A stretch of 64,000 nucleotides of DNA from a bacterium (GTDB lineage Bacteria > Patescibacteriota > Patescibacteriia > SG8-24). Below the pieces are notes generated by a model. That model had not been told where the DNA came from, ran no database searches, and saw nothing but the letters and a program-made list of their open reading frames with translations. Positions 1,831 through 64,000 of this stretch are shown here, one piece after another. Both the position numbers and the translations under genes were made by a program. Within the stretch, counting starts at the first letter, position 1, and each line of letters begins with the position of its first letter. Location of the stretch: NCBI GenBank assembly GCA_021824285.1, contig JAKAKZ010000002.1, positions 1,303 through 65,302 on the forward strand, in the 5' to 3' direction.

Positions 1831-2535
1831 TCATTTGGCCAAGAGCCGAGCGATATCCGGATATTTGGCCAGGTAATCAGCCGGGCACTGCGTCTTGGTC
1901 GAGGAAGCGGACAGGTTCGGCACGCAAGCCGGCAGCCACCAATCGTCTCGACTGCTCGTGAACGGCCACAGGTTGTCGGCCTCTCCGCCATCCTTGAAGA
2001 ACAGCCGGACGCGGATGAACTTGGAGAGCGGCTTCTGGCGCTCGATGAGCACGGCCGAAAGCGGCCGACCGACGGCCTTGTAGTAATCGGTGGCCGGCTC
2101 GGAAACCATCGCCTGAATCAGCGCCCGATCGTTCGCGTCCGCGAGCGAGAAGACGAAAGCCGTCTTCTCCTCGGCTACCGGCGCGGGCGCCGAGGGAGGC
2201 GGCGGCGTATGGCGGCTCGAATAGTTCGCGCGCAGCAGCGAGTAGGAATCGGCCATGGCTTCCAACTGTCCTGACTGCCAGGTCACGTAGAACAGGTTGG
2301 CGATGCCGAGCGCCAGGATCGCCAAAATGGCCAACAGGCTGAGCAGGCCGATTTTCTGGCCGCGCCCAGACTGAAGGGTCGCGGTCGGAGCCGAGCGAGC
2401 CACTTCAATGCGCGGTACAGCCGCCTTGCGCGAGACCGGCCGTTTCCGGGCAGTTTTTTTCGGAGAAGCCGGTTGCGGCTTATCCTCCGTCGGCGGAACC
2501 GGTTGCAGCTCCTCGTTCTCCATAAGAATTGGCAT
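1831..2535 (-). CDS. membrane-anchored hypothetical protein
   Basis: Pro/Lys-rich N-terminal region, then single TM helix (IGLLSLLAILAILALGIANLFYV) and C-terminal domain. Start ambiguous (2535 or 2523). Confidence 0.5.
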   Translation of the reverse strand: MPILMENEELQPVPPTEDKPQPASPKKTARKRPVSRKAAVPRIEVARSAPTATLQSGRGQKIGLLSLLAILAILALGIANLFYVTWQSGQLEAMADSYSLLRANYSSRHTPPPPSAPAPVAEEKTAFVFSLADANDRALIQAMVSEPATDYYKAVGRPLSAVLIERQKPLSKFIRVRLFFKDGGEADNLWPFTSSRDDWWLPACVPNLSASSTKTQCPADYLAKYPDIARLLAK

Positions 2536-4210: not shown

Positions 4211-7200
4211 CTAGGAGCAGCCGCTCGTCGACCCGCAATTTAGGCACTTGTAGCAGGCGCCATTCCGGACCATCATCGCGCCGCAGGTGTCGCACACCGG
4301 CGCGTCGGCCTGGTTGTCGAAGCTCATGGTCAGGGCGTTCGAGGTCCGACCGCGGTCCTTCTGGGCGTCAATCGTCAGCTGGGCGGCCGCGGCGGCGGAT
4401 ATGGCCGTTTTCGGCTCGTCCGGCAGGGGCGTGCAGGATGGCGTGCAGGATTCCGCAGTCGGCGGTTCCGGCGCTGCCATTGCAACCGGCGTCGGCGGCT
4501 CGAACGAGGCCTGACCAGCGTCGCCGATCGTCTGCACTTCGGTATTCACGCCCACGGCCTTCGCCTCTTCCGGCGACAGGAACTTCAGCGCCAGCCAGCG
4601 GAAGATGTAGTCCACGATGGACTTGGCGATGCGGATATTCGGGTTGTTGGTGAAGCCCGACGGCTCGAAGCGCACGTGCGCGAACTTGTTCACGAGCACC
4701 TTTAGCGGCACGCCGTACTGGAGCGCGATGGATGTCGAGGTGGCGAAGGCGTCGATGAGGCCGGCGATGACCGAACCGCCCTTGGCCATGCGGATGAAGA
4801 ACTCGCCCGGCGTGCCGTCGTCATACAGGCCGACGGTGATGTAGCCCTCATGTCCCGCCACCGAGAACTTGTGAGTGAGCGACTTGCGCTCGTCCGGCAG
4901 GCGGCGGCGAAGCGGGCGGTACTCGATCTTGACCTGCGGGGATTGGGTATTGGTGGCTGGTGGCCGGTGGCCGGTGGCTGGTGCTGTGGCTTCTGTAGAT
5001 TTGGTGGAAGCGGCTGGAGCAGGCTTCTTGTCCTTTTCCACGGAAGTCGTCAGCACCTGCTGCCCCTTGGAGCCGTCGCGGTAGATGGCCACGGCCTTGA
5101 GGCCCAGCTTCCAGGATTCGATGTAGGCGTCTTCCACGTCCTTGGGCGTGGCCTCGGCCGGCATGTTCACGGTCTTGGAAATGGCGCCGGAGAGGAACGG
5201 CTGGACCGCGCCCATCATGCGGATGTGGCCCATGTACGGGATGGAACGCACGCCCTTGGCCGGCTTGAAGGCGCAGTCGAAGACCGGCAGATGCTCCTTC
5301 CGGAGATGCGGCGCGCCCTCGATGGTGCCCTCGCGGTCGAGGTAAGCGAGAATGGCCTGTTTCTCCGCCTCGGGATAGCCGAGCGCGTCGAGCGCCAGCG
5401 GCACGGTCTGATTGACGATCTTCATGAGCCCACCGCCCACGAGCCACTTGAACTTCACGAGCGCGATGTCCGGCTCAATGCCGGTCGTGTCGCAGTCCAT
5501 GAGAAAGCCGATGGTGCCGGTCGGGGCCAGTACGGAAATCTGGGCGTTGCGGAAACCGCTTGCCATGCCGCGCTCGAGCGCCTGGTCCCAGGATTCGCGC
5601 GCCATGTCCTGCAGATCCTGCGGCACGCCAAGCGGCGGGATGGCATAAGCCTTGTCGCGGTGCATGCCGATGACCTTGAGGAACGGCCGCTCGTTAAGCC
5701 GATAGAAGCGGAACGGTTCGAGCGCCTCGGCGACGGCGGCGGACTGGGCGTAGGCCCGGCCGGACATGAGCGCCGTGATGGCCGCAGCGAAATTGCGCCC
5801 CTCCTCGGAGTCGTAGGCCAAACCGCGCGCCATGAGCAGGGCACCGAGATTGGCGTAGCCCAAGCCGAGCGGCCGGAAATCCTCGCTGTTCTGTTCGATG
5901 GCCGGTGTCGGATAGCTGGAGTTGGAGACCAGGATCTCCATGGCCGTGATGATCACGTCCACGGCATGGACGAAGGACTCCACGTCGAACCCGCCGTCCG
6001 GCAGGCGGAACTTCATCAGGTTAAGCGAGGCCAGGTTGCAGGCCGTGTCGTCCAGGAACATGTACTCCGAGCACGGATTCGAGGCGTTGATGCGGCCGGA
6101 GTTCGGCGAGGTGTGCCAGCGGTTGACGGTCGTATCGTACTGCAGTCCCGGATCGCCGCATTCCCAGGCGGCTTCGGAGATCTTACGCATCAGGTCGCGG
6201 GCGCGCAGGGTCTCGACCGTCTCGCCGGTCGTCACGGCGCGAGTACGCCATTCGCGGTCTTCGAGCACTGCCCGCATGAAGTCGTCGGTCACGCGCACGC
6301 TATTGTTGGCGTTCTGGAAGAAGACCGAGCCGTAGGCCTCGCCGTCAATGGAGCCATCGTAGCCCAGACCGACCAGCGCTTTGGCCTTCCGCTCCTCTTT
6401 CACCTTGCACATGATGTATTCCTCGATGTCCGGGTGGTCGGCGTTCAGGATCACCATCTTGGCCGCACGGCGCGTCTTGCCGCCGGACTTGATGATGCCG
6501 GCGAAGGCGTCGAAACCCTTCATGAAGGACACCGGCCCGGAGGACTTGCCGCTCGAATTGCCCAAATGCTCCTTGGACGAGCGCAGGGTGGAAAGATTGG
6601 AACCGGTGCCGGAACCGTACTTGAAGAGCATGCCCTCCGTCACCGTCAAGTTCAGGATGGAGCGCATGTCGTCGCGCACGGAATTGATGAAGCAGGCGGA
6701 GCACTGCGGCCGCGCGCTGACGCCCACGTTGAACCAGACCGGGCTATTGAAGGCCGCGTGCTGGTTGACGAGCAGGTGCGTCAGTTCGGTCTCAAAGGTA
6801 TCGGCGTCGCCCGGCGTCGCGAAATAGCCGTCATGGCGGCCCCAATCGGAGACGGTCTTGGCCACGCGGTCCACCATCTGGCGCACGGAAGTCTCCCGCT
6901 CCGGCTTGCCGATCTGGCCGCGGAAATACTTGGAGACGCAGATGTTGGTCGCCTGCTGGCTCCAGGATTCCGGCACCTCCACGCCGCGCTGTTCGAAGAC
7001 GTTCTTGCCCTTCTCGTTGGTGATGATGGCATCGCGCACCTCCCAGGTCATCTCGTCGTAAGGATGCACGCCATCGCGGGTGAACCAGCGATGGAAGCGG
7101 ATGCCGCGGGTGTGGCGCGGCGGGGCCGTCGGCACGTCAGCCGCCGTCAGCGTCGCGAAGTACCGTTTGACGGCGTAGGGCAGGTTATTGTCGATCAGGA

Positions 7201-7516
7201 CGCCGGCAATCGTCCGGGCGACATCGTCCGTGGTCGGTACGGCATGCCCGTCGAAATCGCGCTCCAGCCGCATCAGGGCCTGATGCGTGCAGCGCGCCAA
7301 GAGCTGGCTGTCGGAGAGCCCCACGTCCTTGAACGCCTGCGCAAAAGAAATCGCGACCTGGGCGGCGTCAAAGGGCGCCACGCTGCCGTCGCGATGCTTG
7401 ATGGTCGTGACTTTGGTCAATTCCGGGATCTGGTCCAAGATCGCCGCCACGACCTCCTTGGTGTCCTCGTGGCGTGCGCCGAAAGACGCGCGGGTTTTGG
7501 TTTCGGAATGCGGCAT
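4211..7516 (-). CDS. nrdJ: class II (adenosylcobalamin-dependent) ribonucleotide reductase with N-terminal ATP-cone
   Basis: GAGGAGG SD then ATG (MPHSETK). ATP-cone (VTTIKHRDGSVAPFDAAQVAISF). RNR catalytic core. C-terminal zinc ribbon CDTCGAMMVRNGACYKCLNCGS typical of NrdJ. Low-complexity linkers, no intein hallmarks. Confidence 0.9.
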   Translation of the reverse strand: MPHSETKTRASFGARHEDTKEVVAAILDQIPELTKVTTIKHRDGSVAPFDAAQVAISFAQAFKDVGLSDSQLLARCTHQALMRLERDFDGHAVPTTDDVARTIAGVLIDNNLPYAVKRYFATLTAADVPTAPPRHTRGIRFHRWFTRDGVHPYDEMTWEVRDAIITNEKGKNVFEQRGVEVPESWSQQATNICVSKYFRGQIGKPERETSVRQMVDRVAKTVSDWGRHDGYFATPGDADTFETELTHLLVNQHAAFNSPVWFNVGVSARPQCSACFINSVRDDMRSILNLTVTEGMLFKYGSGTGSNLSTLRSSKEHLGNSSGKSSGPVSFMKGFDAFAGIIKSGGKTRRAAKMVILNADHPDIEEYIMCKVKEERKAKALVGLGYDGSIDGEAYGSVFFQNANNSVRVTDDFMRAVLEDREWRTRAVTTGETVETLRARDLMRKISEAAWECGDPGLQYDTTVNRWHTSPNSGRINASNPCSEYMFLDDTACNLASLNLMKFRLPDGGFDVESFVHAVDVIITAMEILVSNSSYPTPAIEQNSEDFRPLGLGYANLGALLMARGLAYDSEEGRNFAAAITALMSGRAYAQSAAVAEALEPFRFYRLNERPFLKVIGMHRDKAYAIPPLGVPQDLQDMARESWDQALERGMASGFRNAQISVLAPTGTIGFLMDCDTTGIEPDIALVKFKWLVGGGLMKIVNQTVPLALDALGYPEAEKQAILAYLDREGTIEGAPHLRKEHLPVFDCAFKPAKGVRSIPYMGHIRMMGAVQPFLSGAISKTVNMPAEATPKDVEDAYIESWKLGLKAVAIYRDGSKGQQVLTTSVEKDKKPAPAASTKSTEATAPATGHRPPATNTQSPQVKIEYRPLRRRLPDERKSLTHKFSVAGHEGYITVGLYDDGTPGEFFIRMAKGGSVIAGLIDAFATSTSIALQYGVPLKVLVNKFAHVRFEPSGFTNNPNIRIAKSIVDYIFRWLALKFLSPEEAKAVGVNTEVQTIGDAGQASFEPPTPVAMAAPEPPTAESCTPSCTPLPDEPKTAISAAAAAQLTIDAQKDRGRTSNALTMSFDNQADAPVCDTCGAMMVRNGACYKCLNCGSTSGCS

Positions 7517-7537
7517 AGGGTCCTCCTCAGGAGTTAT

Positions 7538-7586
7538 GCACAATAGGTTGTATATTACGTTACCATCTTACCACTATAGGTTGTGG
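7538..7586 (-). promoter_or_regulatory. two NrdR-box-like palindromes (gcacaataggttgtat and ccactataggttgtgg, 33 bp apart) in the nrdJ leader
   Basis: Both resemble the NrdR box consensus acaCwAtATaTwGtgt and share ATAGGTTGT. They lie 22-70 nt upstream of the nrdJ ATG. Confidence 0.45.
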
Positions 7587-7761: not shown

Positions 7762-8337
7762 CTAGAACGGCATCGTCAGGTTGATGGCCGCCTTCTGCGC
7801 CTGCGGCGCGAAATCGACCTTCACCGAAACGTCCTGCCCCATCCGATCCTTGTACTTCACCTGGCCGCTCTTAAGTCCGTACTCATAGACCTCCTTCGTG
7901 ACCTTCACGTCCTGCAGACAGTAGTCCCGCAGCTTCTGGAGTTCTCCCTTGCGGAAAAATTCAATCGCTTGCAGGCCGTTGCCGGATTTGCCGGTCCCCA
8001 GGCTGGCGTGCGCCACGTCGTCGAGCTTCACGCGGAACCCGATCTGCTTCTCGATGTCCTTCATGATGTCGAGCGTCGGAAATTTCATCAGGTCGCCGGG
8101 GTAATAGGTGTTGAGGACCTGGTAGTCGAAACCGAAAAGGTTGTAGCCGATGATCCGGTCGGCGGACTCCAGCAGCCGCCAAAGTTTCGGCAGGTCCGGT
8201 TCCAGGAACGAAAGATACTCATCGGTCCGGTACAGGTACAGTCCGACGAGCGACACCTGCAGGAGCGAAGGATCGTACTTGCCGACGTCCGCGAAGCTGT
8301 TCGCGGTCTCGATGTCCAAAACGACTTCGTTGCTCAT
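7762..8337 (-). CDS. DEDDy-type 3'-5' exonuclease (RNase H-like fold, PolB-exonuclease-like)
   Basis: Exo I VVLDIETAN, Exo II IIGYNLFGFDYQVL, Exo III YCLQDV motifs. Confidence 0.65.
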   Translation of the reverse strand: MSNEVVLDIETANSFADVGKYDPSLLQVSLVGLYLYRTDEYLSFLEPDLPKLWRLLESADRIIGYNLFGFDYQVLNTYYPGDLMKFPTLDIMKDIEKQIGFRVKLDDVAHASLGTGKSGNGLQAIEFFRKGELQKLRDYCLQDVKVTKEVYEYGLKSGQVKYKDRMGQDVSVKVDFAPQAQKAAINLTMPF

Positions 8338-8727: not shown

Positions 8728-9042
8728 CTAGCGGCCGGTCGCGCGCTTCAGGTCCTCGACCCGTAAACGAACCAGACGGGCCGCCTCCTCTTTCGTCCGG
8801 ACCCCATCGAGCGCCTGCGCCAATTCGGCATCACCCACGACTTCGCGCACCCATTTCGCCAGATCGTTCTTCGGCGGATTGACGTGATAGGCAAAGATCT
8901 CATCGCTGATCGACGCAAGGCCGGCGGCAAATTCCTCCAAATTGAAAGCGACCAGATGCATATGCAGCCAGAATCCCTTCCACTTGGGCTCCACGTTGCG
9001 CAGATAATACTCCGCGCTCTCGCGGCTGACGTCGACGCTCAT
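8728..9042 (-). CDS. conserved small protein of unknown function (paralog A of 26871..27248)
   Basis: Shares YL..W.AFW.H and E(I/M)FA(Y/H)HV..KND(L/I)A.W(V/I) motifs with the ORF overlapping the GH57 gene end. TATAAT 11 nt upstream of ATG with no SD (likely leaderless). Confidence 0.6.
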   Translation of the reverse strand: MSVDVSRESAEYYLRNVEPKWKGFWLHMHLVAFNLEEFAAGLASISDEIFAYHVNPPKNDLAKWVREVVGDAELAQALDGVRTKEEAARLVRLRVEDLKRATGR

Positions 9043-9144: not shown

Positions 9145-9519
9145 ATGTCCAAAAAGCAGAGCCGGCGCACACGCCGGTTCGCCAGGAAACTGGCCAACCG
9201 CTGCATCACGCTGCTCGAATCGGGGAAATGGCGGGTCATGTACATCGACATGGACGGCCGGCCGGAGGTCTGTCTCCCCTACGGTCTGGACCACAAGGCC
9301 GTCGGAACCTGCGACTACGCGAAAAAGACCCTGTTCATCGATTTCCGGCGTGACGTCATCAGCACGCTGGTCCATGAACTGCTCCACGCGCGCTTCCCGG
9401 ACTGGCCGGAGAGCCTGGTGGCCGAGCGGGAAAAGACCGTCATGGAGTACCTGAGCCCGCGGCAGGCCCGCAAGCTGCATTTGGCCATGGGCCGGTGGCT
9501 GGCCGTTCCCGGCGAATAA
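9145..9519 (+). CDS. small HExxH-motif protein (putative minimal zinc metallopeptidase)
   Basis: LVHELLHARFPDWPE motif in a 124-aa basic protein. Convergent with the Ubl gene. Confidence 0.5.
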   Translation: MSKKQSRRTRRFARKLANRCITLLESGKWRVMYIDMDGRPEVCLPYGLDHKAVGTCDYAKKTLFIDFRRDVISTLVHELLHARFPDWPESLVAEREKTVMEYLSPRQARKLHLAMGRWLAVPGE

Positions 9520-9556: not shown

Positions 9557-9631
9557 ATTTATGCCCGCGTCGCGGGAAATGAAAAACGGCCGCGCAAGAT
9601 GCGCGGCCGCGAAGTCCTTGATGCCCGGCGC

Positions 9632-9916: not shown

Positions 9917-10567
9917 TCAGTCGGCGAGGAGCTTCATCTCCCCGGCCAACCACTTCAGGTGCCGCCTGGTCTTACCATAAGTCCAGACGTTGGTCAACGA
10001 CATGACCGCCAGGGCCGTCGCCATCTTGGCCACCGGATCGAGCCCGTGCTCGCCGCACATCGGCCGCAACGCGGCCTCATCCGGGTAGAGGAAGTGCTCG
10101 TAGTAGGCGATGTCGTCCTGGTCGGACGGATTCACCGCGAACACCGAGACCAGCTCGATGGCCACGCGGGTATCCACGAGGATGCCCACGTTCGGGTTCT
10201 GGCGCACGGCCTCCCAGATGAGGCGCCGGGCGGCCATCGAATCCACGCAGGCGACGACCGCGTCGCGGAGCGGTTCGCCTGCGTAACGGCGCTCCTCCGC
10301 GACGATGTCCAGACCGCTCTGCTCGCGGACGATCTCCGCGAGCGCCCGGACCTTGTAGACGCCGAGATCAGCCGGCCGGTAGGCCGACATGCAGATGTTG
10401 TGCGACTCCACGCAGTCGTGGTCGAACACGCGGAGCCGCTCCACTCCGATCTTGGCGAGTGAACAGACGACCTGGCTGCCGACCGAACCGGCGCCGATGA
10501 CGGTCACCGGGCGGGCCGCGGCCGGATCGAAGATGTTGTCCTGCTGCGAGCGGTTGAGCGCGGTCAT
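9917..10567 (-). CDS. E1-like ubiquitin-activating enzyme (ThiF/MoeB family)
   Basis: Rossmann VTVIGAGSVGSQV. ThiF motif DHDCVESHN. VVACVDSMAARR. Candidate catalytic Cys in LRPMCGEHG. Start ATG overlaps upstream stop (ATGA). Confidence 0.8.
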   Translation of the reverse strand: MTALNRSQQDNIFDPAAARPVTVIGAGSVGSQVVCSLAKIGVERLRVFDHDCVESHNICMSAYRPADLGVYKVRALAEIVREQSGLDIVAEERRYAGEPLRDAVVACVDSMAARRLIWEAVRQNPNVGILVDTRVAIELVSVFAVNPSDQDDIAYYEHFLYPDEAALRPMCGEHGLDPVAKMATALAVMSLTNVWTYGKTRRHLKWLAGEMKLLAD

Positions 10568-11982
10568 GACGCCACCTCCGAAGTCAGCTGTGTTGCCGGC
10601 GGTGCCGCTTCGGCCGACTGCGCCTCCACCGGCCATTCCTCGATCTTTACCTCGGCCGACTCGGGCGAGTAGCCGTCGCGCAGCCAGCGCACCATCAGGC
10701 GGAACAGGTCCGCGATGCGCAGTTCGCCGGCCGCTTTCGCGATGACATCCGACGCGTTGCCGTAGCACGGCACGCCGTCCTTGGCGATGTGCGGGTGCGG
10801 CACGCCCTTCGGGTGCCGCGGCGCCTCGCTCCAGACCGCAACCGCGCCGTATTTGCCCAACCGGACCGTGAAACTGCCCAGCTGGTAGCGGCGGCCATCG
10901 TGCGCGATGACGATCGGCTTGGTCACGAGATGCAGGCCGTCGTCCAGGAAACGCATGTCAGCCAGATCCTGGTCGGCCAGCAAGGCCGCGAAATCCTCCC
11001 GTGGCCGGAACTTCAGCGCCGTGGTGAACGCCGGCGAAGTGAACTGCGCCAGCATCGCCTCGTAGATGCGCTTCTGGCGGTACGCCTCGGCCTGCCGTTT
11101 CTGCAGTTCTGCGAGGGTCTCCTCGATCTTCGCCAGCTCGTCGCGGAAGTTCTTCTCCACATAACCGCTCCAGCCGGCGACCGTCGCGGCGAAGTCACGG
11201 CGCGTCGGCCGACGGTGCCCGTCATTCATGACGAGCGCCGCCTGCCGCGCCTCCCAAGACTTGGCCAGGAGCTTGGCAAAAATGAGGTCGCTCACGTGCT
11301 GGTAATAGTGGCTGACCACCGGCACGAGCAGGTAGAAGTTCAGGCCCAGGGCCTGCACCACCGGCTTGCCGGCCTCGTCTTTCACCACCAGGCCGCGGCC
11401 ATGCGTCGGTCCGTTGCAGACCACGGCGTGACCGTCCTTATGCGGACACAAGCCGAACAGCAGCGCTTCATAGCGGCTGTTGGCGTCGCCGGGCGGCGTC
11501 GCGTTGGCGAAGAAGTGCGCGGTCGTGCCGTCGTCGGGGAACGGCGCGCGGACCGATCCGCCGCCGAGATGCACCGCTGCCTTCAGTCCGGTCAGCCGGC
11601 TGAACAGCTCAAGCGCCGGTTGGTAATAGCGCATGATGCGGCGGCGCTTTTCCAGCTCCGCCGGGTCGAGCTTATCGCCGTAATTGACCGTGGCCTTCTG
11701 GGGCGGCGGCAGGACAAGCGTCACGAGCCGGTCGCGGATCGTGCCCTTGAAAAGGCTTTTCCGCTCGACCGGGATCTTCAGGACCGAAGCCGCCCTGACG
11801 GCATCTAACGCCCCGAAAGGCGTGGCGTTGCCGAAGAGCAGGACATCGATGAAATAATCCTGTATCGCCAGGCGCGCTTTCCGGCCCTTGAGTCCGTGCG
11901 CGGCCAGCTCCGCTACCTTGCCAGCGGCCGCGTAAGCCGGGAAGGCCAGCGGACCGCGGTACTGCTCGGAACTTTTTTTCAT
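10564..11982 (-). CDS. 472-aa protein with C-terminal UBC-like E2 domain fused to an unknown ~380-aa N-terminal domain
   Basis: AAGGAGAGA SD then ATG at 11982 (MKKSSEQ). C-terminus ...AVAVWSEAPRHPKGVPHPHIAKDGVPCYGNASD has the same HPx-I-x3-G-x2-C spacing as the eukaryotic E2 HPN-loop and catalytic Cys (UbcH5 HPNINSNGSIC). N-terminal region has no recognisable motifs. Confidence 0.6.
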   Translation of the reverse strand: MKKSSEQYRGPLAFPAYAAAGKVAELAAHGLKGRKARLAIQDYFIDVLLFGNATPFGALDAVRAASVLKIPVERKSLFKGTIRDRLVTLVLPPPQKATVNYGDKLDPAELEKRRRIMRYYQPALELFSRLTGLKAAVHLGGGSVRAPFPDDGTTAHFFANATPPGDANSRYEALLFGLCPHKDGHAVVCNGPTHGRGLVVKDEAGKPVVQALGLNFYLLVPVVSHYYQHVSDLIFAKLLAKSWEARQAALVMNDGHRRPTRRDFAATVAGWSGYVEKNFRDELAKIEETLAELQKRQAEAYRQKRIYEAMLAQFTSPAFTTALKFRPREDFAALLADQDLADMRFLDDGLHLVTKPIVIAHDGRRYQLGSFTVRLGKYGAVAVWSEAPRHPKGVPHPHIAKDGVPCYGNASDVIAKAAGELRIADLFRLMVRWLRDGYSPESAEVKIEEWPVEAQSAEAAPPATQLTSEVAS

Positions 11983-12090
11983 TCGTCTCTCCTTGATTTT
12001 CAAGCAGCGGCCGCCATTCCAGGCGGACGCGCGACCTTAACACAAGGCGCCTGCTTTTTCAAGACCCTAAACGGCGGGGAAGATCGCGCG

Positions 12091-12118
12091 ACAAAAAAAC
12101 GCGCCTGCAGCGGCGCGT
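12091..12118 (-). terminator. rho-independent terminator after wHTH gene
   Basis: cgcgcctgcagcggcgcg hairpin with T-run on minus strand. Confidence 0.5.
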
Positions 12119-29692: not shown

Positions 29693-29831
29693 TGGTTGAG
29701 TGCGCCGCCCGCCTTAACGCCTGAACAAAATCTCAAGTTATCCACAATAACAGCCCGAGTCATGCGCAGACGAATCGGTCGGCGACCTAATTATATTCCT
29801 ATGGTATAGGCTTGAAAAGAGGCGAACCCGG

Positions 29832-29858
29832 ATGTCGGCAGCCGTCCGCGCGACGGCT
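29832..29858. other. strong intergenic stem-loop (cggcagccgtc-cgcgc-gacggctgccg)
   Basis: 11-bp perfect stem in the 5' region of the CYTH-kinase gene. Confidence 0.4.
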
Positions 29859-29986
29859 GCCGCGCAAATCCCGCAATCCGCTGTTTGCTGGACCGTAAAT
29901 AGATAAAAATCGCGCGCGAAACATCGATTGACTTTCCCCTGCCCGCCGACTAAGCTCGACTCGCGTTCCTTAACTGGGAGAATGGC

Positions 29987-31078
29987 ATGGCCAAAGAGAT
30001 CGAACGGCGTTTCGTCGTCACGGGCATTGATCCGGACGTGCGCCGGTATCCGAGCCACGAGATCGTACAGGGCTACATCGACACCACGCCCGCGCAGAGT
30101 TTCCGGGTGCGGATCATCGACGACGTCCGCGGCAAGTTCACCAATAAGACCGGCGTCGGACTCGTGCGCGAGGAAGAGGAGGACGACTGCTGCCTCAAGG
30201 ACGCGCGCTTCATCATGAAGTGCTGTCCGCACAAGCTCAGCAAGACGCGCCACCTGCGCGAAGGCTGGGAAGTGGACTTCTTCCACGGACCGCTCGCCGG
30301 CCTGGTGCTCGCGGAAAAGGAGATGGCTTCGGTCAATGAGATCGTCCGTCTTCCGCCCTGGATCACCGGCGCGTACGAGGTGACCGAGTCGGTGACCAAC
30401 CAGCATCTGGCCTGGCTCGCCACCGAGCTCGCGTCCCTCGCCGAAGCGCGGCCGGATTCTCCGGTGCGCGACCTGCTGACGAAGCGTCTGCCCCGCATCG
30501 TCTTCACCGGCGGTCCCTGTTCCGGCAAGAGCACCGCGCTCGCCGCCGTGGCCAAGGAGTTCGCCGCGGCCGTGCACTGCGTCCCGGAGGCCGCCACCAT
30601 CGTCATCGCCCAGGTCGGCGCCAAGCCGCCGGTCGGCGATCCGCTCGGCATGCGGCAGTTCCAGCGCACGCTCATGCGCACGCAGGCGAACTTCGAGACC
30701 GTCTCGGAACTCCAAGCCAGCCGCGACCTGAAGCAGGCGATGATCGTGGACCGCGGCACCGTGGACGGCGCCGCCTACCTCGACGGCGATCTCGAACGGT
30801 TCGCGGCTGTCTGCCAGACGACTGTCGCGGCCGAGTACGGCCGCTACGACCTGGTGCTCTGCCTCGAGACGCCGCCGCGCGACGTCTACGACCGGATGGC
30901 GGGCAACAATGCCGCACGGTCCGAGCCCTACGACGCCGCGGCGCTGCTCGGCGCGCGGCTCCAGGACGTCTGGGCCGGACACCCCGGCTTCCGGCTCGTC
31001 CGGAACGGCGCTTCCTGGGAGGAGAAGCTCGACTCCGTGCGGCAGGCAATCTCCGATTTCCTCGCCGGCAAACGATGA
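29987..31078 (+). CDS. CYTH-domain (triphosphate tunnel metalloenzyme) fused to NadR-type ribosylnicotinamide-kinase-like P-loop domain (AAA_28-like)
   Basis: CYTH head EIERRFVV. P-loop IVFTGGPCSGKST resembling the NadR C-terminal kinase domain. Confidence 0.6.
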   Translation: MAKEIERRFVVTGIDPDVRRYPSHEIVQGYIDTTPAQSFRVRIIDDVRGKFTNKTGVGLVREEEEDDCCLKDARFIMKCCPHKLSKTRHLREGWEVDFFHGPLAGLVLAEKEMASVNEIVRLPPWITGAYEVTESVTNQHLAWLATELASLAEARPDSPVRDLLTKRLPRIVFTGGPCSGKSTALAAVAKEFAAAVHCVPEAATIVIAQVGAKPPVGDPLGMRQFQRTLMRTQANFETVSELQASRDLKQAMIVDRGTVDGAAYLDGDLERFAAVCQTTVAAEYGRYDLVLCLETPPRDVYDRMAGNNAARSEPYDAAALLGARLQDVWAGHPGFRLVRNGASWEEKLDSVRQAISDFLAGKR

Positions 31079-31082
31079 ACTT

Positions 31083-31108
31083 GGCGCCCCCGTACGGGGG
31101 CGTTTTTT
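31083..31108 (+). terminator. rho-independent terminator
   Basis: ggcgcccccgtacgggggcg + tttttt. Confidence 0.6.
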
Positions 31109-31133
31109 GTTTCCAAAAGAAAAAGAGGGGCGT

Positions 31134-31799
31134 TCACCCCTCCGCATCGTCGGTGCCGTCGCTGGACGGCGATTTCTGATCACGGCTGACGCCCGGCGAC
31201 ATTCTGGTCACGCCGACGGTGACCGTCATCTGCCCATGCGGCATCGCTGCCGTAGACGTACCGTCGTTCTTTGCGGCCTCGTCGCTGGCCCGGCCCAGGG
31301 CGTCGAGCTTCGGGCGGCTGGCTTCCTCGCGGTGACGGCGATAGGTGTCCGCCCAGCAGCGCGGCTCTTCGTCCGGCTCCATGCGCACACCGTAGAACAG
31401 TTCGATGTCGGCGTTGAAGGCCGCGGCCATCTCAAACATCTTCCAGTGCACGGCCCGGTAGCCACGCCGCACGTACTCGCGCTCCCAGAAGGTCCAAGAG
31501 TCGAGCAGCCGGTCAAAGCCGATGCCTTCGCCCATACAGGGCACGAAGCTCTCCGCATAGCCGAACCGAAGTCCGGCATGGATGTAACGCTTCAGCACGA
31601 AGCTGTCGGAAGCGAGCCGCACCAGCCGGGCCGCCAGGCCGAATCGACGGTCGTCCGTCCCGTCGCGCTCCGGCCCTTCGTGCCACCAGGCGACGATGAG
31701 CAGCAGCAGGATAGTGGCCGCGGACAGGACGGACAGCGCCAGCAACACCTCAAAGACGGCTTTGGCCATTGCCGAATAATAAAGAGCGGTGATGTCCAT
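31134..31799 (-). CDS. membrane-anchored hypothetical protein
   Basis: N-terminal TM (VFEVLLALSVLSAATILLLLIVAWW) plus soluble domain. Confidence 0.5.
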   Translation of the reverse strand: MDITALYYSAMAKAVFEVLLALSVLSAATILLLLIVAWWHEGPERDGTDDRRFGLAARLVRLASDSFVLKRYIHAGLRFGYAESFVPCMGEGIGFDRLLDSWTFWEREYVRRGYRAVHWKMFEMAAAFNADIELFYGVRMEPDEEPRCWADTYRRHREEASRPKLDALGRASDEAAKNDGTSTAAMPHGQMTVTVGVTRMSPGVSRDQKSPSSDGTDDAEG

Positions 31800-34597: not shown

Positions 34598-36363
34598 TCA
34601 ATGCGGCAATTCTCCGGTCGCGGGCTGCTCGGCGCGGTCGCCGGCCATAGCCGCGTATCTGGCGGCCGAATCGGTGTCCCCCTGACTGCGGGCCAAGGCG
34701 GCCAGTAGCCGGAAGACATCGGCCCGGGCCGCCGGATCCGCCAGGCGGCCGGCGAGCCGCTCAAGAGTCTGGCTGGCCTCGGCTGGTCGGCCGCTGTCCA
34801 GATAACTCGCGGCCAGCGACTTATAGGAAAACAGGAAATTCGGATCGAGTTCCAGGGCCTTGCTGAACGCCGCGACGGCCTTCTCCATCTCGCCGCGCTG
34901 CCGCCACATGGTACCGATGTTGTGGTAGGCCACCGGATTGCCGGGATCCAAGGCGATCGCCCGCTCATAGATCGGCAGGGCCTCATCATAGCGTCTGGCC
35001 TCGTCATAGGCCATACCGAGGTTGTTGAGGACGCGGTAAGACGGTTGGGCGTGCTCCAGAAGCTGATTATAGAACGTTATTGGATCGTGCCACTCGCGGT
35101 TCCGCAGCACGGTACGCGCCGAAAGGAGGGCCAGAAACAGCACGGCCAATCCCACGCCGAGGCGGCGCAGCATCAGCCCGGAAGCCGGCCGCCGGGCGGC
35201 CACCCAGGCGCAAGCGGCCGCGAAACCGCCGGCGACCGCGAAAAACCACCCCAAGAGCGGCGAGTAAAGCCAGTGTTCGTAGAGCAGGGCGCTGTTCGGT
35301 ACGAGCAGGTTGGTGTTCGGCAGGATGCGGATGAAGAACCAGGCGATGCCGAAAGCGGCCTCCGGCAGGCGTTTCCAGGATGCGACGGCCGCGGCAAGCA
35401 GCGCGGCGCAGAGCAGGGCGCCGCCAGCCACGTCCCAGGACCAGAACGACAGGGCCACCGGCACGGCCCGTTCCATGTATAAGGTGACGGGCGCGACGAG
35501 CAGCGCCGCATAGACCGTCATCACCCGGAAGAAGGTGAACAGCCGCACGTGGAAGTTCTCGGTGAAGGGCGTCTCCCGGCCGTAGAGGTTGGTGATGTGG
35601 TTGAAATTCAGGGCCGTGAGCCGCAGCAACGCGTAACCGCCGAGCAGGACCAGGAAGGGCCAGGCCGCGCGGAGGATGTCGATGGCATAATTCTTCAATG
35701 ATTTACCGCGGCCGTTCGCAAACCAGTCGCAGAGCACGATGAGCGCCGGCAGGGCGATGGCCGTCTCCTTGGTGAGCAGCGAAAGCAAGAACAGGAAGAT
35801 CGACCCCCAATAGATCGGATCTTCTGCCTTGGGGTCGCCCTCGTCCCGGTGCCGCAGGAACAGCAGGATGCTGCCGAGCATCAGTAGGATGGCCAGCGGA
35901 TCGCCGCGGCCAGAGACGTAGGTGACGGCTTCGGTCTGGAGCGGATGGACCAGGAAAACGAGGCTGGCAAAGAGCGCCAAGCCGCGCCGCGCGAACAGCC
36001 GATCCAGGAGGGCGTAGGCCAAGATGGCCGCCGCGATATGGATCAGCGTGCTGACGACGTGATAGCCGAACGGCGCCGCGCCCCACAGGTGCCATTCCGT
36101 GGCGTAGAGGATGAGCAGCAGCGGGCGCCAGTAGTTGCTGACCAGGCCAGAGCCGGCGATGAGGTTCTCGCTGAAGAACTTGGGCAGATTCGCCCAGTCG
36201 CGGATGAAGACGTTGTTGAGAATGCCGTCCTGATCGTCCCAAAACAGCTGGTTGCCGAAGGAATTGGCGTACAGCGCCAAACCGAGGACCAAAAAGGCCA
36301 GCGCAACGATACGAAAAGCGAACCGGCGGTCATGCAGAAAACGGTCGCGCAGTGCGGCGAGCA
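34598..36363 (-). CDS. polytopic membrane protein with C-terminal TPR repeats (PMT/ArnT-like GT39-type N-terminal domain)
   Basis: Multiple TM helices. C-terminal TPR (YRVLNNLGMAYDEARRYDEALPIYERAIALDP...). Start chosen at MLAAL (36363). Track ORF extends to 36469 through the (GA)n repeat. Confidence 0.6.
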
Positions 36364-36420
36364 TATATGGGAAGTATACATCGGCAGGGTCTGGGAGTGT
36401 AGGAGCCGGGTTAAGAGGTC

Positions 36421-36444
36421 GAGAGAGAGAGAGAGAGAGAGAGA
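36421..36444. repeat. (AG)12 dinucleotide microsatellite
   Basis: agagagagagagagagagagagag, followed by partial inverse ctctttctctctcc. Lies in the divergent region between 34598..36363 and 36487..36798. Confidence 0.9.
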
Positions 36445-36486
36445 GCGTCGTCGCTCTTTCTCTCTCCATCTCCAGATCTTCTCAAT

Positions 36487-36798
36487 ATGCTATACTCCAG
36501 CCATATGCCCCACCAGGAAACGCGGTCGCCGAACCCAGGAGAACGCGACCTGTATATCGCCGGCGAATACAAGAGAAACTACATCATCGTCCAGAAGGAG
36601 ATCCTGCAGGATCTGCCCGACGACGACGCGCGGCTGAAATGGATCGAACGCTATGGCCGGACATTCCACGACCTCGCGGCCGACAACGGCAAGTTCCACG
36701 AGCTGCTGACGGCGGAGAAGCCGGACCTGAAGCAGATCCGCGGCCTCGTCGAACGTACCGCCGACGCCGAGCGGCAGGAGCGCGACCTGCTGCATTGA
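36487..36798 (+). CDS. small hypothetical protein
   Basis: ORF with high GC3. Possible start at 36505 (MPHQ) preceded by TATACT. Confidence 0.4.
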   Translation: MLYSSHMPHQETRSPNPGERDLYIAGEYKRNYIIVQKEILQDLPDDDARLKWIERYGRTFHDLAADNGKFHELLTAEKPDLKQIRGLVERTADAERQERDLLH

Positions 36799-36950
36799 GG
36801 TTGCCGCCCCTTGACCGCGCGGCACGGCTCAGGTTATCATCAGGCGCACGCGCGACTGCCGGCTGACCGCCGCAGGAGACGTGAGAGTCAAAAATTTCTT
36901 CAACCATTAACGCTTCGCGGCCGAACGCCGACGATCGCGGTTCGACGGAA

Positions 36951-38309
36951 ATGAAACGGAACTCGAGACGCCTTTGGAAACTCGCCAAAGAAGAGTGCAA
37001 CACGCAATACTACGACGCTTCGCCCAAAGGCGAGCTGATCGCCAAGGAGGGCCATTACCAATACAACATCCGCGACCTCATTCGCCGCTACGGCAGTCCG
37101 CTGGAGATCGTCTTCCCGCACATCGTGGAGCAGCGCGTCCGGCACCTCACGGGCCTTTTTGACGCCTACATCAAGCTCAACGACTACAAGGGGAGGTTTT
37201 TTTATCACTATCCGATGAAGGTCAACCAGGGCAAGGAGGTCGTCCTCTCCCTCGTCTCCGAGGGCGCCAACCTGGAGACCTCCTCGGCCAACGAGCTCTG
37301 GATCGTCAAGCGCCTGGCCGAACAGGGCAAGGTCACGCCGCGGCTCCGCATCCTCTGCAACGGCCCCAAGACCCTCAAGTACCTCAACCTCATCGACGAG
37401 CTCGACCGCAAGGGCGTGATCGTCACGCCGATGATCGAAGAGGCGCATGAGCTCGACTACTTCCGCCGCTACAAGGGCGAAGTCGGCGTGCGCGTCAACC
37501 TGAACATCAAGATCGATTCGCATTGGGACAAGAAATTCAACCGATTCGGCTTCCAGGAGGAGGAGCTGCTGGAGCTGGGCAAGATCCGCAATCTCGGCGT
37601 GCTCTCCTACCACATCTCCAGCCAGATCGAGCGGGTCGAGGGACTGACCGCGCCGATCCGCCGCGCTTTCCAGCTCTACGCCAAGATGCGGACGCTCAAT
37701 CCCCAGCTCGACACCATCAACATCGGCGGCGGCGCCGGCGTGCCCTACGAGAAACGACGCTTCTATACAGCGAAGGCCGCGGTCGGGCTGATCGTAAAAA
37801 CCTTCAAGAAGATGGCCCGCGAGCTGAACGTCCGCGAACCGAACATCATCTGCGAATGGGGGCGCTACGTCGTCGCGCCGGCGCAGATGACCGTCTTCCA
37901 GGTGCTGTCCGAGAAGACAGTGACTAACGGCCACAGCAAGAAGTGGTATACGGTCGACGGCAGCTTCATCACCGACCTGCCCGACACCTGGGGCATCCAC
38001 CAGAAATGGCACATCGTGCCGGCCAACAACATGGATTCGCGGCGCCTGCAGAAAGTCTGGCTGGCCGGCTCGACCTGCGACAGCGACGACAAGTACACGG
38101 CCGGCGGCGGCCACATCCTCCTGCCGAAGCTCGAACCGGGCGATGAGCAGTATATCGCCGTGCTCGACACCGGCGCCTATCAGGATTCGCTGGCTAATCG
38201 CCATTGCCTGCTGTCCCGTCCCGTGAAACTAATCGCCCAGAACGGGGACGTGACCGTGGTCCGCAAGCGCGAATCACCGGAGGACGTGGGCCGGAAATTC
38301 GGCTGGTGA
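36951..38309 (+). CDS. type III PLP-dependent decarboxylase (Orn/DAP/Arg decarboxylase family)
   Basis: TIM-barrel alanine-racemase-like N-domain motifs (YPMKVNQ, GANLETSS) and C-terminal beta-domain (CDSDD). Confidence 0.7.
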   Translation: MKRNSRRLWKLAKEECNTQYYDASPKGELIAKEGHYQYNIRDLIRRYGSPLEIVFPHIVEQRVRHLTGLFDAYIKLNDYKGRFFYHYPMKVNQGKEVVLSLVSEGANLETSSANELWIVKRLAEQGKVTPRLRILCNGPKTLKYLNLIDELDRKGVIVTPMIEEAHELDYFRRYKGEVGVRVNLNIKIDSHWDKKFNRFGFQEEELLELGKIRNLGVLSYHISSQIERVEGLTAPIRRAFQLYAKMRTLNPQLDTINIGGGAGVPYEKRRFYTAKAAVGLIVKTFKKMARELNVREPNIICEWGRYVVAPAQMTVFQVLSEKTVTNGHSKKWYTVDGSFITDLPDTWGIHQKWHIVPANNMDSRRLQKVWLAGSTCDSDDKYTAGGGHILLPKLEPGDEQYIAVLDTGAYQDSLANRHCLLSRPVKLIAQNGDVTVVRKRESPEDVGRKFGW

Positions 38310-55630: not shown

Positions 55631-56560
55631 TCAGCGGCGGCCGACGGCGCGGGCCGCATCTTCAATCATCTTGCGCCATGGCGCAAACATGGTGTGCGGG
55701 TCGTCAAAGCCAGACTCCAACGCGAGATACATCTCAGAAAGTTTTTTTTCGTCCCAAGCGGCCAAATCGCGCCAATCGTCGATGAGAACCAATGGCAAGC
55801 CCAGACCCAAGAAATGCTCGTTCATGATGTTCCGCTTGACGATAGGCACCGTGCGGAGCAGCAGGGCTTCCCAGGTGCGGATACAGTCGATGCCGTTGCC
55901 CGGCGGCGAGGCCACAAACTTGTAGCCGTGTAAAACGCGCGCGTATTCCGGCGGAATCGGCCAACCCTCTAGGCGGTCCGCGCTCGCGCAAGTCGACAGA
56001 GCATCCAGCGCCGGCTGCCGCTCGGTCGGGTTCGTGGCGACCGTAAAACCGTAAAGGATCCGATTCTTTTTCGGCGTGGCCGCACGCCTTAACCGGGCGA
56101 AAATCCGCGGCAGGCCGTTGTTGCAATAATAGCGGTTCTCCAGCCCAATGGGTATCGGCCTGATTTTATCGTGCCGGACAGCCACGTTCTGCGCGAACCA
56201 GGCCGCAATACGGTCATCAAGCTTAGCGGCGAGAGCGGCGTCGATATTCCGGTCGCCGTTGTGGGTGATAAGCACGTATTTCGCTGCAATCTTCGGATGC
56301 GCTTCGGCGAAATAGCGGTCAATCATCTTCACGTCAACGAAAATGACGGCGCCGGCCCGCACCGCCTCCGGACGGAACTCGCGGCCATTTTCATATATAT
56401 GATCGGCCATGGCCCGAAACGTGTCGCCGCTCACGAAGGGAAGGCTATCCGGCCGCGGATTCGGCGTGAATGGCAAAAGCCGCCGGCACAGGCCGCGCCG
56501 CAAGCGAAAAGCTAATTCCTTCAGGCGGTGCGTGCCCATATGCCGGAGAGGCGTTTCCAA
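55631..56560 (-). CDS. exostosin-like (GT47-like) glycosyltransferase
   Basis: YKFVASPPGNGIDCIRTWEALLLRTVPIV resembles the exostosin C-terminal motif (FcL.P.G....RL.EAl..GCIPVI). Confidence 0.5.
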   Translation of the reverse strand: METPLRHMGTHRLKELAFRLRRGLCRRLLPFTPNPRPDSLPFVSGDTFRAMADHIYENGREFRPEAVRAGAVIFVDVKMIDRYFAEAHPKIAAKYVLITHNGDRNIDAALAAKLDDRIAAWFAQNVAVRHDKIRPIPIGLENRYYCNNGLPRIFARLRRAATPKKNRILYGFTVATNPTERQPALDALSTCASADRLEGWPIPPEYARVLHGYKFVASPPGNGIDCIRTWEALLLRTVPIVKRNIMNEHFLGLGLPLVLIDDWRDLAAWDEKKLSEMYLALESGFDDPHTMFAPWRKMIEDAARAVGRR

Positions 56561-58068
56561 ACCAAGAGGCCAAAATCGCGCAGGGCGATCCTGTCTTCAA
56601 CCTCAAAGAAGCCGAACAGCAGATACAGCAGATAATAAAGCGCTACGGCAAAGCCGAATACCGGCAGGAGAGTCCAGAGGCTCGAGATGAGGCCGAACAG
56701 AAAGTAATGTGCCACCACCGCCACGACCGCGCCGCAGACCGCGTTCTTGAGAGCCAGATGCAGCCAAGCGCGGGCACGCCCCGCGAGACCGAGCACGTTC
56801 TTCTCCGCGAAACGGAACAGGCCCAACACTGGCAGGACCGCCACGAGATAGGCCCAGGCCGCACCCTCGATGCCGTAACGCGGCAAGAACGCCGCAAGCG
56901 CCGCAACGTTGATACCCAGCATGATGAACGAATACTTGGCCAGAATGCGCACCCTCCCGAGACCGAGCAGGAAGCTGTTGAGCGGCCCGTTCAGGGACAG
57001 GATCAGGTAAGTCGCGGCCAGAATAACCATGATCTTCCAGGAACGCTCGGCGAAATCGTCGTTCAGCCAATAGCGCAGGATGGGCTTGGAAAATATCGCG
57101 ACCGGCACGGCCAGACCGGCGGCCACGACCGCAAGCAGGCGGAAAGCGCGCACGTACATCTTCTTGAGGCGCTCCGTGTCGCCGCTCCCCTGCAGGGCGC
57201 TGGACATCGGGAACAGGATGCCGGCCAGGCCGCCGTTCACGCCCTGGATCTTCGTGGTCACGTTGCCCGGCAGGCTGTAATAGGCAAGTTGGGCCGGACC
57301 GAGGAGGAACGGGATGATGAGACGATCTAGCTGGATGAGCAAGGAGTTCGCCCAATTGCTCATGAAGTGCACGGACCCGAACTTCAGGCAGCGCAGGAAT
57401 TCGGTGCGGTCCCAAACGAACCGGAAGGAGATGCCCGGCAATAGGCGGCGCGCGACGCGACGGAAAGCAAGAAGGAACACGGTATCGTAGAAAAGCGTCG
57501 AGGACAAGACCGCAACCAGCCCGAAACCGGACAGGAGCAGGGCCAGAATCGTCATGTTGTTGAAGAAAATCTTGAGCATCCCCAACTTATTGCTGACATC
57601 TAGCCGCTGCAGGGCGGTGGGGACGGCCAGGTACACGCTGGCCGCGACGTTGACGAAAAAAATCGCGGCGGCGAGCGCAAAACATGCCGTGAAGTAGGTG
57701 TACCCGAGGCCTGCGCCGAGCGGACCGTAGGCGACGGCACCAATCGCCAGCATGGCCGCCGCGCCGGCTGTCGCGGTTCCGACAAAAAAAAGACCGGCCG
57801 TACCAGTCAGTCTTGCCGCGGCCTTGCCGTCGCCGGCGCCGACGTATTCGGCCAAAAATTTGGTCATGGCCGTACTGACGCCGATGTCCAAGAGCCCCAA
57901 CAGCGAACTGACCGTATTGAGGAGCACGAAAAAGCCGTAGTGCTCCACGCCCAACCGGAACACCACGACCGGCGTGACGAAAATCGCGAAAATGACCGGC
58001 CAGACGTAGCCCAAAAAGCCGAAAGCCGCGTTTTTGAGGGTTTTGTACGTTGGAGAATCGGTCTGCAT
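56521..58068 (-). CDS. oligosaccharide flippase (Wzx/MOP superfamily)
   Basis: 14-TM polysaccharide biosynthesis protein. N-terminus typical of Wzx. Confidence 0.7.
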   Translation of the reverse strand: MQTDSPTYKTLKNAAFGFLGYVWPVIFAIFVTPVVVFRLGVEHYGFFVLLNTVSSLLGLLDIGVSTAMTKFLAEYVGAGDGKAAARLTGTAGLFFVGTATAGAAAMLAIGAVAYGPLGAGLGYTYFTACFALAAAIFFVNVAASVYLAVPTALQRLDVSNKLGMLKIFFNNMTILALLLSGFGLVAVLSSTLFYDTVFLLAFRRVARRLLPGISFRFVWDRTEFLRCLKFGSVHFMSNWANSLLIQLDRLIIPFLLGPAQLAYYSLPGNVTTKIQGVNGGLAGILFPMSSALQGSGDTERLKKMYVRAFRLLAVVAAGLAVPVAIFSKPILRYWLNDDFAERSWKIMVILAATYLILSLNGPLNSFLLGLGRVRILAKYSFIMLGINVAALAAFLPRYGIEGAAWAYLVAVLPVLGLFRFAEKNVLGLAGRARAWLHLALKNAVCGAVVAVVAHYFLFGLISSLWTLLPVFGFAVALYYLLYLLFGFFEVEDRIALRDFGLLVWKRLSGIWARTA

Positions 58069-58143
58069 GCGGGACAGCGGTTGCGGCTTTATTGGCCAAC
58101 TATAGCACCTAAACTAGCAATAATCACGCCCCGGCCCAACGGC

Positions 58144-58842
58144 TCACGCGATTTCCTTTTTCAACCTAACGGAGAAGGACATTGTCCGCTTGATGAACTT
58201 CCACCGGTCGCCCCAACCGCGGTTCCAAGTGGACTCGCCGTGCAGGCGTTTTGGGAAGATCACCGGGAAGCGCAGGACGCGCAATCCCCGCTTCCGGGCC
58301 AGATAGAGTGCGTAGAGGTCCAGCGCGAAATCCGTCGGCGGATCCTGCCAAGCCTCGAAGAATGTGCGGTGGAAAATATTAGGCTGGCCGTTCACGTCGA
58401 AAAGGGCGCGGCCGAAGTAGAGCGTCTCGAAGAGACCCATACCAAGCGTGAACACCGTATCCGTGAACGGCCGTCCGTGCCGGAAACCCTTCGCATAGAC
58501 GTCGGATTTGTTGCCGTCCTTTTCAATAATCTCCAAGGCGCGCAGCACGTCCGCCGGCGGTGTCTGCAGATCGCCATGCGTCCAGCCGAGGTAATCTCCC
58601 TTGGCGGCACGCAGGCCGGCGAGCACCGCGGAACCGTAGCCCGGACGCGACTCGAAGACCGAGCGGGCGAACCCGTATTTCTGGAGCAGTTCCTTAAGCA
58701 CGGCTGCGGACTCGTCTTTGGAGTTGTTATCCACGATGACCACCTCGATGTCTGGCCGCCCAAGCACGGCGGCAAACCGCTCCAAGATGAGGGGAATGTT
58801 CTTGGCTTCGTTGTAGCATGGAACGACGATGGAAAGTTTCAT
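58144..58842 (-). CDS. GT2-family glycosyltransferase (Dpm1/polyprenol-phosphate sugar synthase-like)
   Basis: KLSIVVPCYNEAKNI...VVIVDNNSKDES. Confidence 0.75.
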   Translation of the reverse strand: MKLSIVVPCYNEAKNIPLILERFAAVLGRPDIEVVIVDNNSKDESAAVLKELLQKYGFARSVFESRPGYGSAVLAGLRAAKGDYLGWTHGDLQTPPADVLRALEIIEKDGNKSDVYAKGFRHGRPFTDTVFTLGMGLFETLYFGRALFDVNGQPNIFHRTFFEAWQDPPTDFALDLYALYLARKRGLRVLRFPVIFPKRLHGESTWNRGWGDRWKFIKRTMSFSVRLKKEIA

Positions 58843-58890
58843 GGGCGTGGATGTTCATCGATGGAGATATGACATTCGCTATTTGAGCCG

Positions 58891-60042: not shown

Positions 60043-60044
60043 AA

Positions 60045-61460: not shown

Positions 61461-61488
61461 GTGAAGTGGCCAGCAACGGCCGGTTCGG

Positions 61489-63762: not shown

Positions 63763-63774
63763 GTCGCTTCGTCA

Positions 63775-64000
63775 GCGCTTCTTGAATACGTAGATGTCGT
63801 CGTTCTGGCCGACCAGATCGTACGGAAGCCCGCCCTGAAGCAGCCTCTCAACCAAGTCGGCGGTATGCCGACAGGCGTCCTGGTCGCGCAGCAGGCCAAG
63901 CCGCGACGTATCGATGAACGGCTCGTTGCGACGCAGGACCACGAAATCCTTGGGCTTGAACGACTTCAGAAGTTCCGCCGGACTCTTCGCGTCGCCCCAA
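63775..64000 (-). CDS. C-terminal fragment of a protein (possibly glycosyltransferase); 5' part beyond window
   Basis: Minus-strand ORF ending ...DIYVFKKR* at 63775, continues past 64000. Confidence 0.35.

Follow-up and report, generated by a model that had tools for sequence, protein, structure and literature searches.

Gene content of the locus

Within a 64,000-nucleotide stretch of a Patescibacteriota contig (JAKAKZ010000002.1, positions 1,303 to 65,302; hereafter the window), we analysed a gene whose product resembles ubiquitin-conjugating (E2) enzymes in its C-terminal part. This protein, which we call E2L, is encoded immediately upstream of a minimal ubiquitin-activating (E1)-like enzyme and a small ubiquitin-like protein (Ubl). 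The three genes probably constitute a previously undescribed Ubl-conjugation cassette. The cassette and its borders, in the direction of transcription, are as follows:

12090..12115, minus strand: terminator-like hairpin and T run after the upstream 166-amino-acid (aa) gene, read from the sequence GCGCCGCTGCAGGCGCGTTTTTTTG and not listed by the automated scan
10564..11982, minus strand: E2L gene (472 aa; alpha/beta N-terminal domain, helical region and UBC-like C-terminal domain), from the open reading frame (ORF), its Shine-Dalgarno (SD) sequence and a public gene call
9917..10567, minus strand: minimal E1-like adenylating enzyme (216 aa, ThiF family; Pfam ThiF 7.4e-15), its ATG overlapping the E2L stop codon
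9632..9889, minus strand: ubiquitin-like beta-grasp protein (85 aa) ending in ERPRGS before the stop codon, from translation and a SAMP2 profile match
9586..9610, minus strand: intrinsic-terminator-like hairpin closing the cassette (11-bp stem with 9 GC pairs, then a T run)

The E2L ORF spans 10564..12003 on the minus strand. The likely start is the ATG at 11982, which is preceded by the SD sequence AAGGAG six bases to its 5' side, and the publicly available gene prediction for this contig is an identical 472-aa protein. The coordinates assigned in a first-pass annotation made from the sequence alone (10564-11982) were therefore correct. The E2L stop and the E1 start overlap as ATGA. The hairpin at 12090..12115 sets the upstream 166-aa gene apart from the cassette, and the three genes are thus flanked on both sides by terminator-like hairpins.

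The same arrangement was found elsewhere. Related contigs from ENA and NCBI assemblies, GTDB genomes and JGI metagenomes yielded approximately 23 distinct E2L-E1-Ubl cassettes, and in every related locus that was long enough, the three genes were adjacent, on one strand and in this order. Typically, the E1 partner was minimal, ThiF/UBA5-like and ~217 aa long, and the Ubl, which is SAMP2-like, had ~80 aa. Several cassettes came from metagenome-assembled genomes (MAGs) of Patescibacteria. Sources that carry a name include MAGs of Candidatus Uhrbacteria and of Candidatus Lloydbacteria, the latter confirmed as a lineage of Patescibacteria/Parcubacteria; one MAG with a relative is labelled Baltobacteraceae.

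Size and architecture of the E2L family

When 1.84 billion cluster representatives were searched exhaustively with a profile, 2184 E2L family representatives were detected at E <= 1e-3; of these, 792 and 179 also passed the stricter cut-offs of E <= 1e-10 and E <= 1e-30, respectively. E2L is thus a member of a large family, not an isolated oddity. A word-indexed protein search badly under-reported this family: the full-length query recovered only three or four relatives (32-37% identity for three), the N-domain profile none and the C-domain profile two.

Among the 150 best family representatives, 131 were 420-560 aa long and matched along their full length, and the shorter ones resembled fragments. 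As the full-length architecture is common to most of these relatives, the possibility that the long ORF is a mis-joined fusion of two genes, created by an assembly or sequencing error, was refuted, as the first-pass annotation had anticipated. At least 130 homologues keep the architecture, the same gene occurs on independent contigs, and the structural model described below has a predicted TM score (pTM) of 0.85 over the whole chain; we give such an artefact next to no probability. One family member (P0141, 483 aa) carries an Ala/Pro/Arg/Thr-rich sequence in place of the C-terminal domain, where the HPH...C motif would be expected, and is probably a frameshift or pseudogene.

No family in Pfam, PADLOC, NCBIfam or PHROGs matched E2L at E <= 0.1, and none of 94 homologues matched a relevant Pfam family; the four single-member matches obtained were to coiled-coil or other unrelated families (E 0.002-0.005). 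The earlier remark that the N-terminal region has no recognisable motif therefore extends to the entire protein, its E2-like part included. Literature searches, whose coverage was incomplete, returned no description of the E2L family or of any E2 from Patescibacteria.

E2L consists of three modules

We modelled E2L with AlphaFold2, using a 130-sequence alignment as input (mean pLDDT 89.5). Residue conservation is likewise given over an alignment of 130 sequences. The chain was divided into three modules, the last of which carries a putative active-site motif:

11308..11955, minus strand: N-terminal alpha/beta domain (residues ~10-225), with conserved P163-P-G165, G195-R-G197, D202, Q210 and Y217
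10975..11301, minus strand: helical region of ~105 residues (228-336) with four long helices, from AlphaFold2 secondary structure
10618..10974, minus strand: UBC/RWD-fold E2-like domain of ~115 residues (337-455), from AlphaFold2 and profile comparison
10756..10815, minus strand: putative active-site motif H390-PKGVP-H396-P-H398-IAKDGVP-C406-Y-G408-N409, from translation, conservation and E2 alignment

The first-pass annotation had described an E2-like domain of ~90 residues fused to a single unrecognised domain of ~380 aa. The fusion to a large N-terminal segment without a match in any library was borne out, as was the C-terminal position of the E2-like part. Its length was not, since the domain begins at residue 337 and covers ~115 residues (337-452 by the tighter delimitation), and the N-terminal region comprises two modules (~10-225 and ~228-336) instead of one.

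The C-terminal domain is E2-like

In the model, the C-terminal domain adopts a UBC-type fold, in which a helix and a four-strand antiparallel beta-meander are followed by a loop and by C-terminal helices. The fold matched was UBC/RWD, not JAB. H396, H398, C406 and G408 were conserved in 100% of sequences, and H390 (95%), W384, W433, L434, Y438 and W450 in at least 95%. In ~5% of members, H390 was changed to G, Q or R.

We then aligned a 34-sequence profile of this domain with four canonical E2s using hhalign. Of the four E2 sequences, those of UbcH5b and UbcH7 were checked and matched UQ_con at 185 and 163 bits, respectively. In the resulting register, P-H396-P-H398-I...G..C406 fell on Y-H75-P-N77-I...G..C85 (probability 57.6%, pairwise E 1e-4). 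C406 was thereby placed on Cys85 of UbcH5b, the catalytic position, by both hhalign and HMMER. The same HPH/HPN register was obtained in 10 of 11 weak PDB profile matches, namely eight UBE2L3 chains and two designed 'L3A2-1' chains. E2L thus carries a variant of the canonical HPN motif with a Cys ~8 residues downstream: the motif reads HPH, with Asn replaced by His, and the Cys lies at +8.

No curated E2 model (UQ_con, Prok-E2_A to E, UEV or RWD) matched E2L in Pfam at E <= 0.1, and no E2-type Pfam match was found at E <= 0.01 in the 94 relatives. Each of the individual scores is modest. Nevertheless, because fold, motif register and conservation agree, assignment of the C-terminal domain as E2-like is supported, and the UBC-like signature noticed at first pass is real.

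The N-terminal domain weakly resembles amidotransferases

The best fold matches of the N-terminal domain were weak, and all were flavodoxin-like proteins related to class-I glutamine amidotransferases (GATases): GH42M-type domains, ThuA, gamma-glutamyl peptidase, GATases, HisH/Pdx2 and MetA. Foldseek returned nothing under E 0.1 against PDB, and the N-domain profile had no match there. The only PDB matches of the full-length profile were coiled-coil proteins, which represent noise contributed by the helical region. The N-terminal region is thus characterised only in part, as a possible GATase-like fold.

Conserved residues of this domain include P163, G165, G195, R196, G197 (98%), D202, Q210 (98%) and Y217. 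Neither a Cys nor a Ser is conserved as a nucleophile, and H156 was present in only 60% of members. The domain lacks a GATase-type Cys-His-Glu triad. As a conserved nucleophile is missing, the domain is probably non-catalytic. The last helix of the helical region (317-336) runs straight into the UBC-like domain in the model.

The E1-like and ubiquitin-like partners

Searches with the E1 profile against PDB placed UBA5 (4e-12) and ThiF (7e-10) first, with Cap2 and MccB also among the best solved relatives. The protein retains the GxGxxG motif and the Asp of CVDxM. A crossover-loop cysteine, C171, lies in the motif CGxHG, and a Cys is present at this position in 26 of 27 relatives. It sits 146 residues after the first P-loop Gly, a spacing that we take to be that of ThiF Cys184. 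The E1 also matched a phage family (phrog_15670, of unknown function) over nearly its whole length (E 3e-17). E2L was absent from the viral and plasmid collections searched (IMG/VR viral contigs, GenBank phages and PLSDB plasmids).

The Ubl matched SAMP2 structures by profile (E 5.7e-5) and gave sub-threshold matches to SAMP2, Ub-Mut7C, ThiS and RnfH models. Among 23 distinct Ubl sequences, 20 ended in GS (consensus ER[PA]xGS), and one each in SS, GG and AG; the last residue was thus Ser in 21. The Arg at position -5 was invariant in a 12-sequence alignment. A lone residue behind the Gly that is conserved this strictly is unusual for a precursor cap, as one would expect a mere cap to vary. In one related locus (L011), a second small ORF (102 aa; 2067-2375, plus strand) directly follows the Ubl gene and ends in RVSGGS; it may be a second Ubl-like gene.

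A single divergent cassette (L016, 5001-8766) encodes a JAMM peptidase. Its 207-aa product, encoded between E2L and E1, carries an exact JAMM motif (HSHx7SxxD) and has Rpn11/PSMD14 as its best PDB matches (7e-5). The presence of this JAMM/Rpn11-like gene connects the family with the machinery that attaches and removes Ubls. The Ubl of this cassette ends in AAG, and its E2L (P0150, 749 aa) has an additional hydrophobic, membrane-like N-terminal extension.

Genomic surroundings

Flanking genes varied between loci and were ordinary chromosomal genes. A conserved fourth gene of the cassette was sought among the window neighbours (the 166-aa upstream gene, an HExxH-containing ORF, a DUF5752-like gene and an exonuclease) and rejected, as these adjoin the cassette only in the same organism. 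The HExxH ORF (9145-9519, plus strand, 124 aa) carries the sequence HELLH, converges on the end of the cassette and weakly matches DUF6782, a family of putative metallopeptidases, as well as the WLM domain (E 0.03-0.06). It was not found beside the cassette in other organisms.

Also beside the cassette are a DUF5752-like protein (104 aa; 8728-9042, minus strand), a PolB-exonuclease/RNase_H_2-like protein (191 aa; 7762-8337, minus strand) and, beyond these two, an ORF of 1110 aa (4211-7543) that by eye appears to resemble class II ribonucleotide reductase. Two other long ORFs, at 61489-63762 (757 aa) and 29738-31183 (481 aa), both on the minus strand, matched nothing in Pfam at E <= 1e-5. Scanning the window with Rfam and for tRNAs gave no hits. 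AT skew was strongly positive (+0.20 to +0.26) at 36001-38000 and 56001-64000 and near zero over most of the window.

Proposed mechanism and alternative explanations

We propose, with a probability of roughly 0.62, that E2L is the E2 of a three-gene Ubl-conjugation cassette and that its N-terminal modules are a built-in adaptor. The minimal ThiF/UBA5-type E1 would adenylate the C-terminus of the SAMP2-like Ubl and probably then take it as a thioester on C171 of CGxHG. From there, the Ubl would be handed to C406 in the UBC-fold domain of E2L, where H396-P-H398 would stand for the canonical HPN, and E2L would pass it to a target without a separate ubiquitin ligase (E3). The most likely role of the alpha/beta domain, together with the helical region, is that of a non-catalytic adaptor for target binding and/or oligomerisation.

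Several observations weigh against this proposal. The invariant His-x-His...Cys, together with H390, could be a zinc site. The genes neighbouring the cassette are not conserved. The Ubl ends in Gly-Ser and the cassette encodes no processing peptidase, and to our knowledge no E1 has been documented to activate a Gly-Ser end.

If H396-x-H398...C406, possibly with H390, did bind zinc, the C-terminal domain would aid E2-independent, SAMP-type conjugation by the E1, either as an RWD-like scaffold or as a metalloenzyme, and would not itself carry the Ubl. Three His and one Cys lie within 17 residues and are conserved in 95-100% of sequences, the spacing H-x-H-x7-C mirrors the metal-binding H-x-H-x7-S of JAMM enzymes, and no E2 takes part in the conjugation of archaeal SAMP2, to which the Ubl is closest among solved structures. 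The motif nonetheless aligns residue by residue with the HPN...Cys of canonical E2s, the candidate ligand H390 is replaced in some members, and the fold is not that of JAB; we consider a zinc site unlikely. Attention may also be turned to the N-terminal domain, which could be a cryptic class-I GATase-like hydrolase, from a superfamily that includes peptidases, that removes the Ubl Ser or reverses conjugation. E2L would then combine an E2 with a processing enzyme. Such an activity would fit the exclusively GATase1-like fold matches (gamma-glutamyl peptidase, HisH/Pdx2, ThuA and GH42M), the conservation of Q210, G197, D202, R196 and H156, and the distribution of peptidase genes, which are missing from cassettes with GS-ending Ubls and present only in the JAMM cassette, whose Ubl ends in Gly. 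This explanation is quite improbable, however, as neither a conserved nucleophile nor the triad is present, H156 is poorly conserved, and P0150 retains the N-domain core in spite of its accompanying JAMM gene.

Less probable still is that the cassette serves sulfur transfer or biosynthesis in the manner of ThiS/ThiF or MoaD/MoeB systems and not protein tagging, with the E2L Cys acting as a persulfide relay. ThiF equivalogs are the best curated matches of the E1, the Ubl has weak ThiS matches, and the surroundings are ordinary chromosomal genes, not defence genes. However, all ThiF and MoeB equivalog scores fell far under their cut-offs (e.g. 59.5 vs 159), the Ubl ends in GS and not GG, one variant carries the JAMM/Rpn11-like peptidase, and no rhodanese, cysteine desulfurase, thiamine or molybdenum cofactor genes were linked to the cassette in the related loci.

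Returning to the conjugation cassette, a broader and more speculative version, which we regard as doubtful, is that it represents a self-contained tagging pathway of uncultured bacteria, particularly Patescibacteria, operating with neither E3 nor deubiquitinase. Here, the terminal Ser would be functional, either as the activated residue or through new activation or processing chemistry. The N-terminal region would be the substrate receptor, and the role would be of a chromosomal housekeeping type instead of phage defence. If the terminal Ser is indeed functional, this would be the first Ubl pathway without a glycine C-terminus.

Significance

We know of only a few described bacterial ubiquitination-like pathways, namely CBASS Cap2, Bil and Bub. 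All are tied to phage defence, for Bub by inference from gene neighbourhoods, and they have been studied mainly in cultivable bacteria. The cassette would add a mechanistically distinct pathway, with a classical His-Pro-x...Cys E2 fused to an unknown module, a minimal E1, no deubiquitinase and a Gly-Ser Ubl. It lies among ordinary chromosomal genes of uncultured lineages, including several Patescibacteria MAGs, and raises the question of what purpose protein tagging serves in organisms with very small genomes. A compact three-protein system of this kind would be suited to studying how E2s recognise targets without E3s, and would allow E1 handling of a non-glycine C-terminus to be examined directly. 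The analysis also brought to light more than 2000 sequence clusters of one family for which Pfam, NCBIfam, PADLOC and PHROGs have no model.

Comparison with known systems

Like canonical E2/UBC proteins (UQ_con; UbcH5b, UbcH7 and Ubc13), E2L combines a beta-meander, a His-Pro-x loop, a Cys ~8 residues further on and C-terminal helices, and has an E1 and a Ubl as partners. Unlike them, it lacks a significant UQ_con match, has His in place of Asn and an additional conserved H390, begins a helix directly after the Cys, carries ~335 fused N-terminal residues and has no E3.

The partners recall other systems. The closest solved relatives of the Ubl are SAMP2 proteins, and the small ThiF-type E1 is reminiscent of archaeal sampylation (SAMP2 with UbaA). 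That pathway works without an E2, and its SAMPs terminate in Gly-Gly, whereas the cassette shows strict linkage of an E2-like protein and a Gly-Ser terminus on its Ubl. The model for SAMP-activating E1s scored only 30.7 on the cassette E1 against a cut-off of 450. The UFM1 system (UBA5 with UFC1) shares with the cassette a UBA5-type E1, UBA5 being its best solved match, and the UFM1 precursor carries a short tail (Ser-Cys) after its Gly. UFC1, however, lacks an HPN motif, whereas E2L has HPH, and there was no sign of UFL1 or UfSP relatives; the likeness is confined to the shared adenylation domain.

As in CBASS type II, whose Cap2 is an E2-E1 fusion, the E1 matched PADLOC 'E1-E2' models, in their E1 part only. 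In contrast to Cap2, the cassette has separate genes, a free Ubl and no effector; a general Pfam scan found no CD-NTase family among the neighbouring genes, although no search aimed at CD-NTases was made. The PRTRC model TIGR03736 scored 47.4 bits against a cut-off of 144.75, and no PRTRC model matched E2L or the neighbouring genes. ThiS/ThiF and MoaD/MoeB systems likewise differ, given the GS end of 20 of 23 Ubls, the sub-cut-off equivalog scores and the lack of linked cofactor genes.

Bil operons contain a JAB peptidase and a tandem IAD-AAD-CYS E1, and the Bil E2 is thought to choose targets without an E3 (bioRxiv 10.1101/2024.11.21.623953). As in these antiphage systems (BilABCD), the Ubl, the E1 and an E2 that contains a cysteine are encoded together in a bacterial operon. 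The cassette differs in that its E1 is a single 216-aa ThiF domain, its Ubl ends in GS and PADLOC gave no match for E2L; the window cassette has no JAB gene, a JAMM motif occurring in only one related locus (L016). The large N-terminal extension of E2L also confirmed the mismatch with the stand-alone Bil E2 pointed out in the first-pass annotation.

Bub E1 and E2 proteins lack catalytic cysteines and work via Tyr and Ser oxyesters, and Bub operons encode a DUF6527 serine protease and include the fused architectures BubAB, BubCD and BubBD (bioRxiv 10.1101/2024.11.21.623953). The cassette is like Bub/6E/DUF6527 systems in that it groups bacterial Ubl, E1 and E2 proteins that are diverged and have non-canonical features. 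Unlike these systems, it consists of three separate genes, with an invariant C406 in E2L and the CGxH Cys in 26 of 27 E1s, and DUF6527 had no match in the cassette genes. The operon types 6a to 6e differ from the cassette both in architecture and in their His/Cys patterns (Iyer et al. 2006, PMC1779556). The cassette therefore resembles a Ubl/E1/E2 pathway, yet it stands apart from each of the described families, Bil, Bub, CBASS Cap2, PRTRC and ThiS/MoaD.

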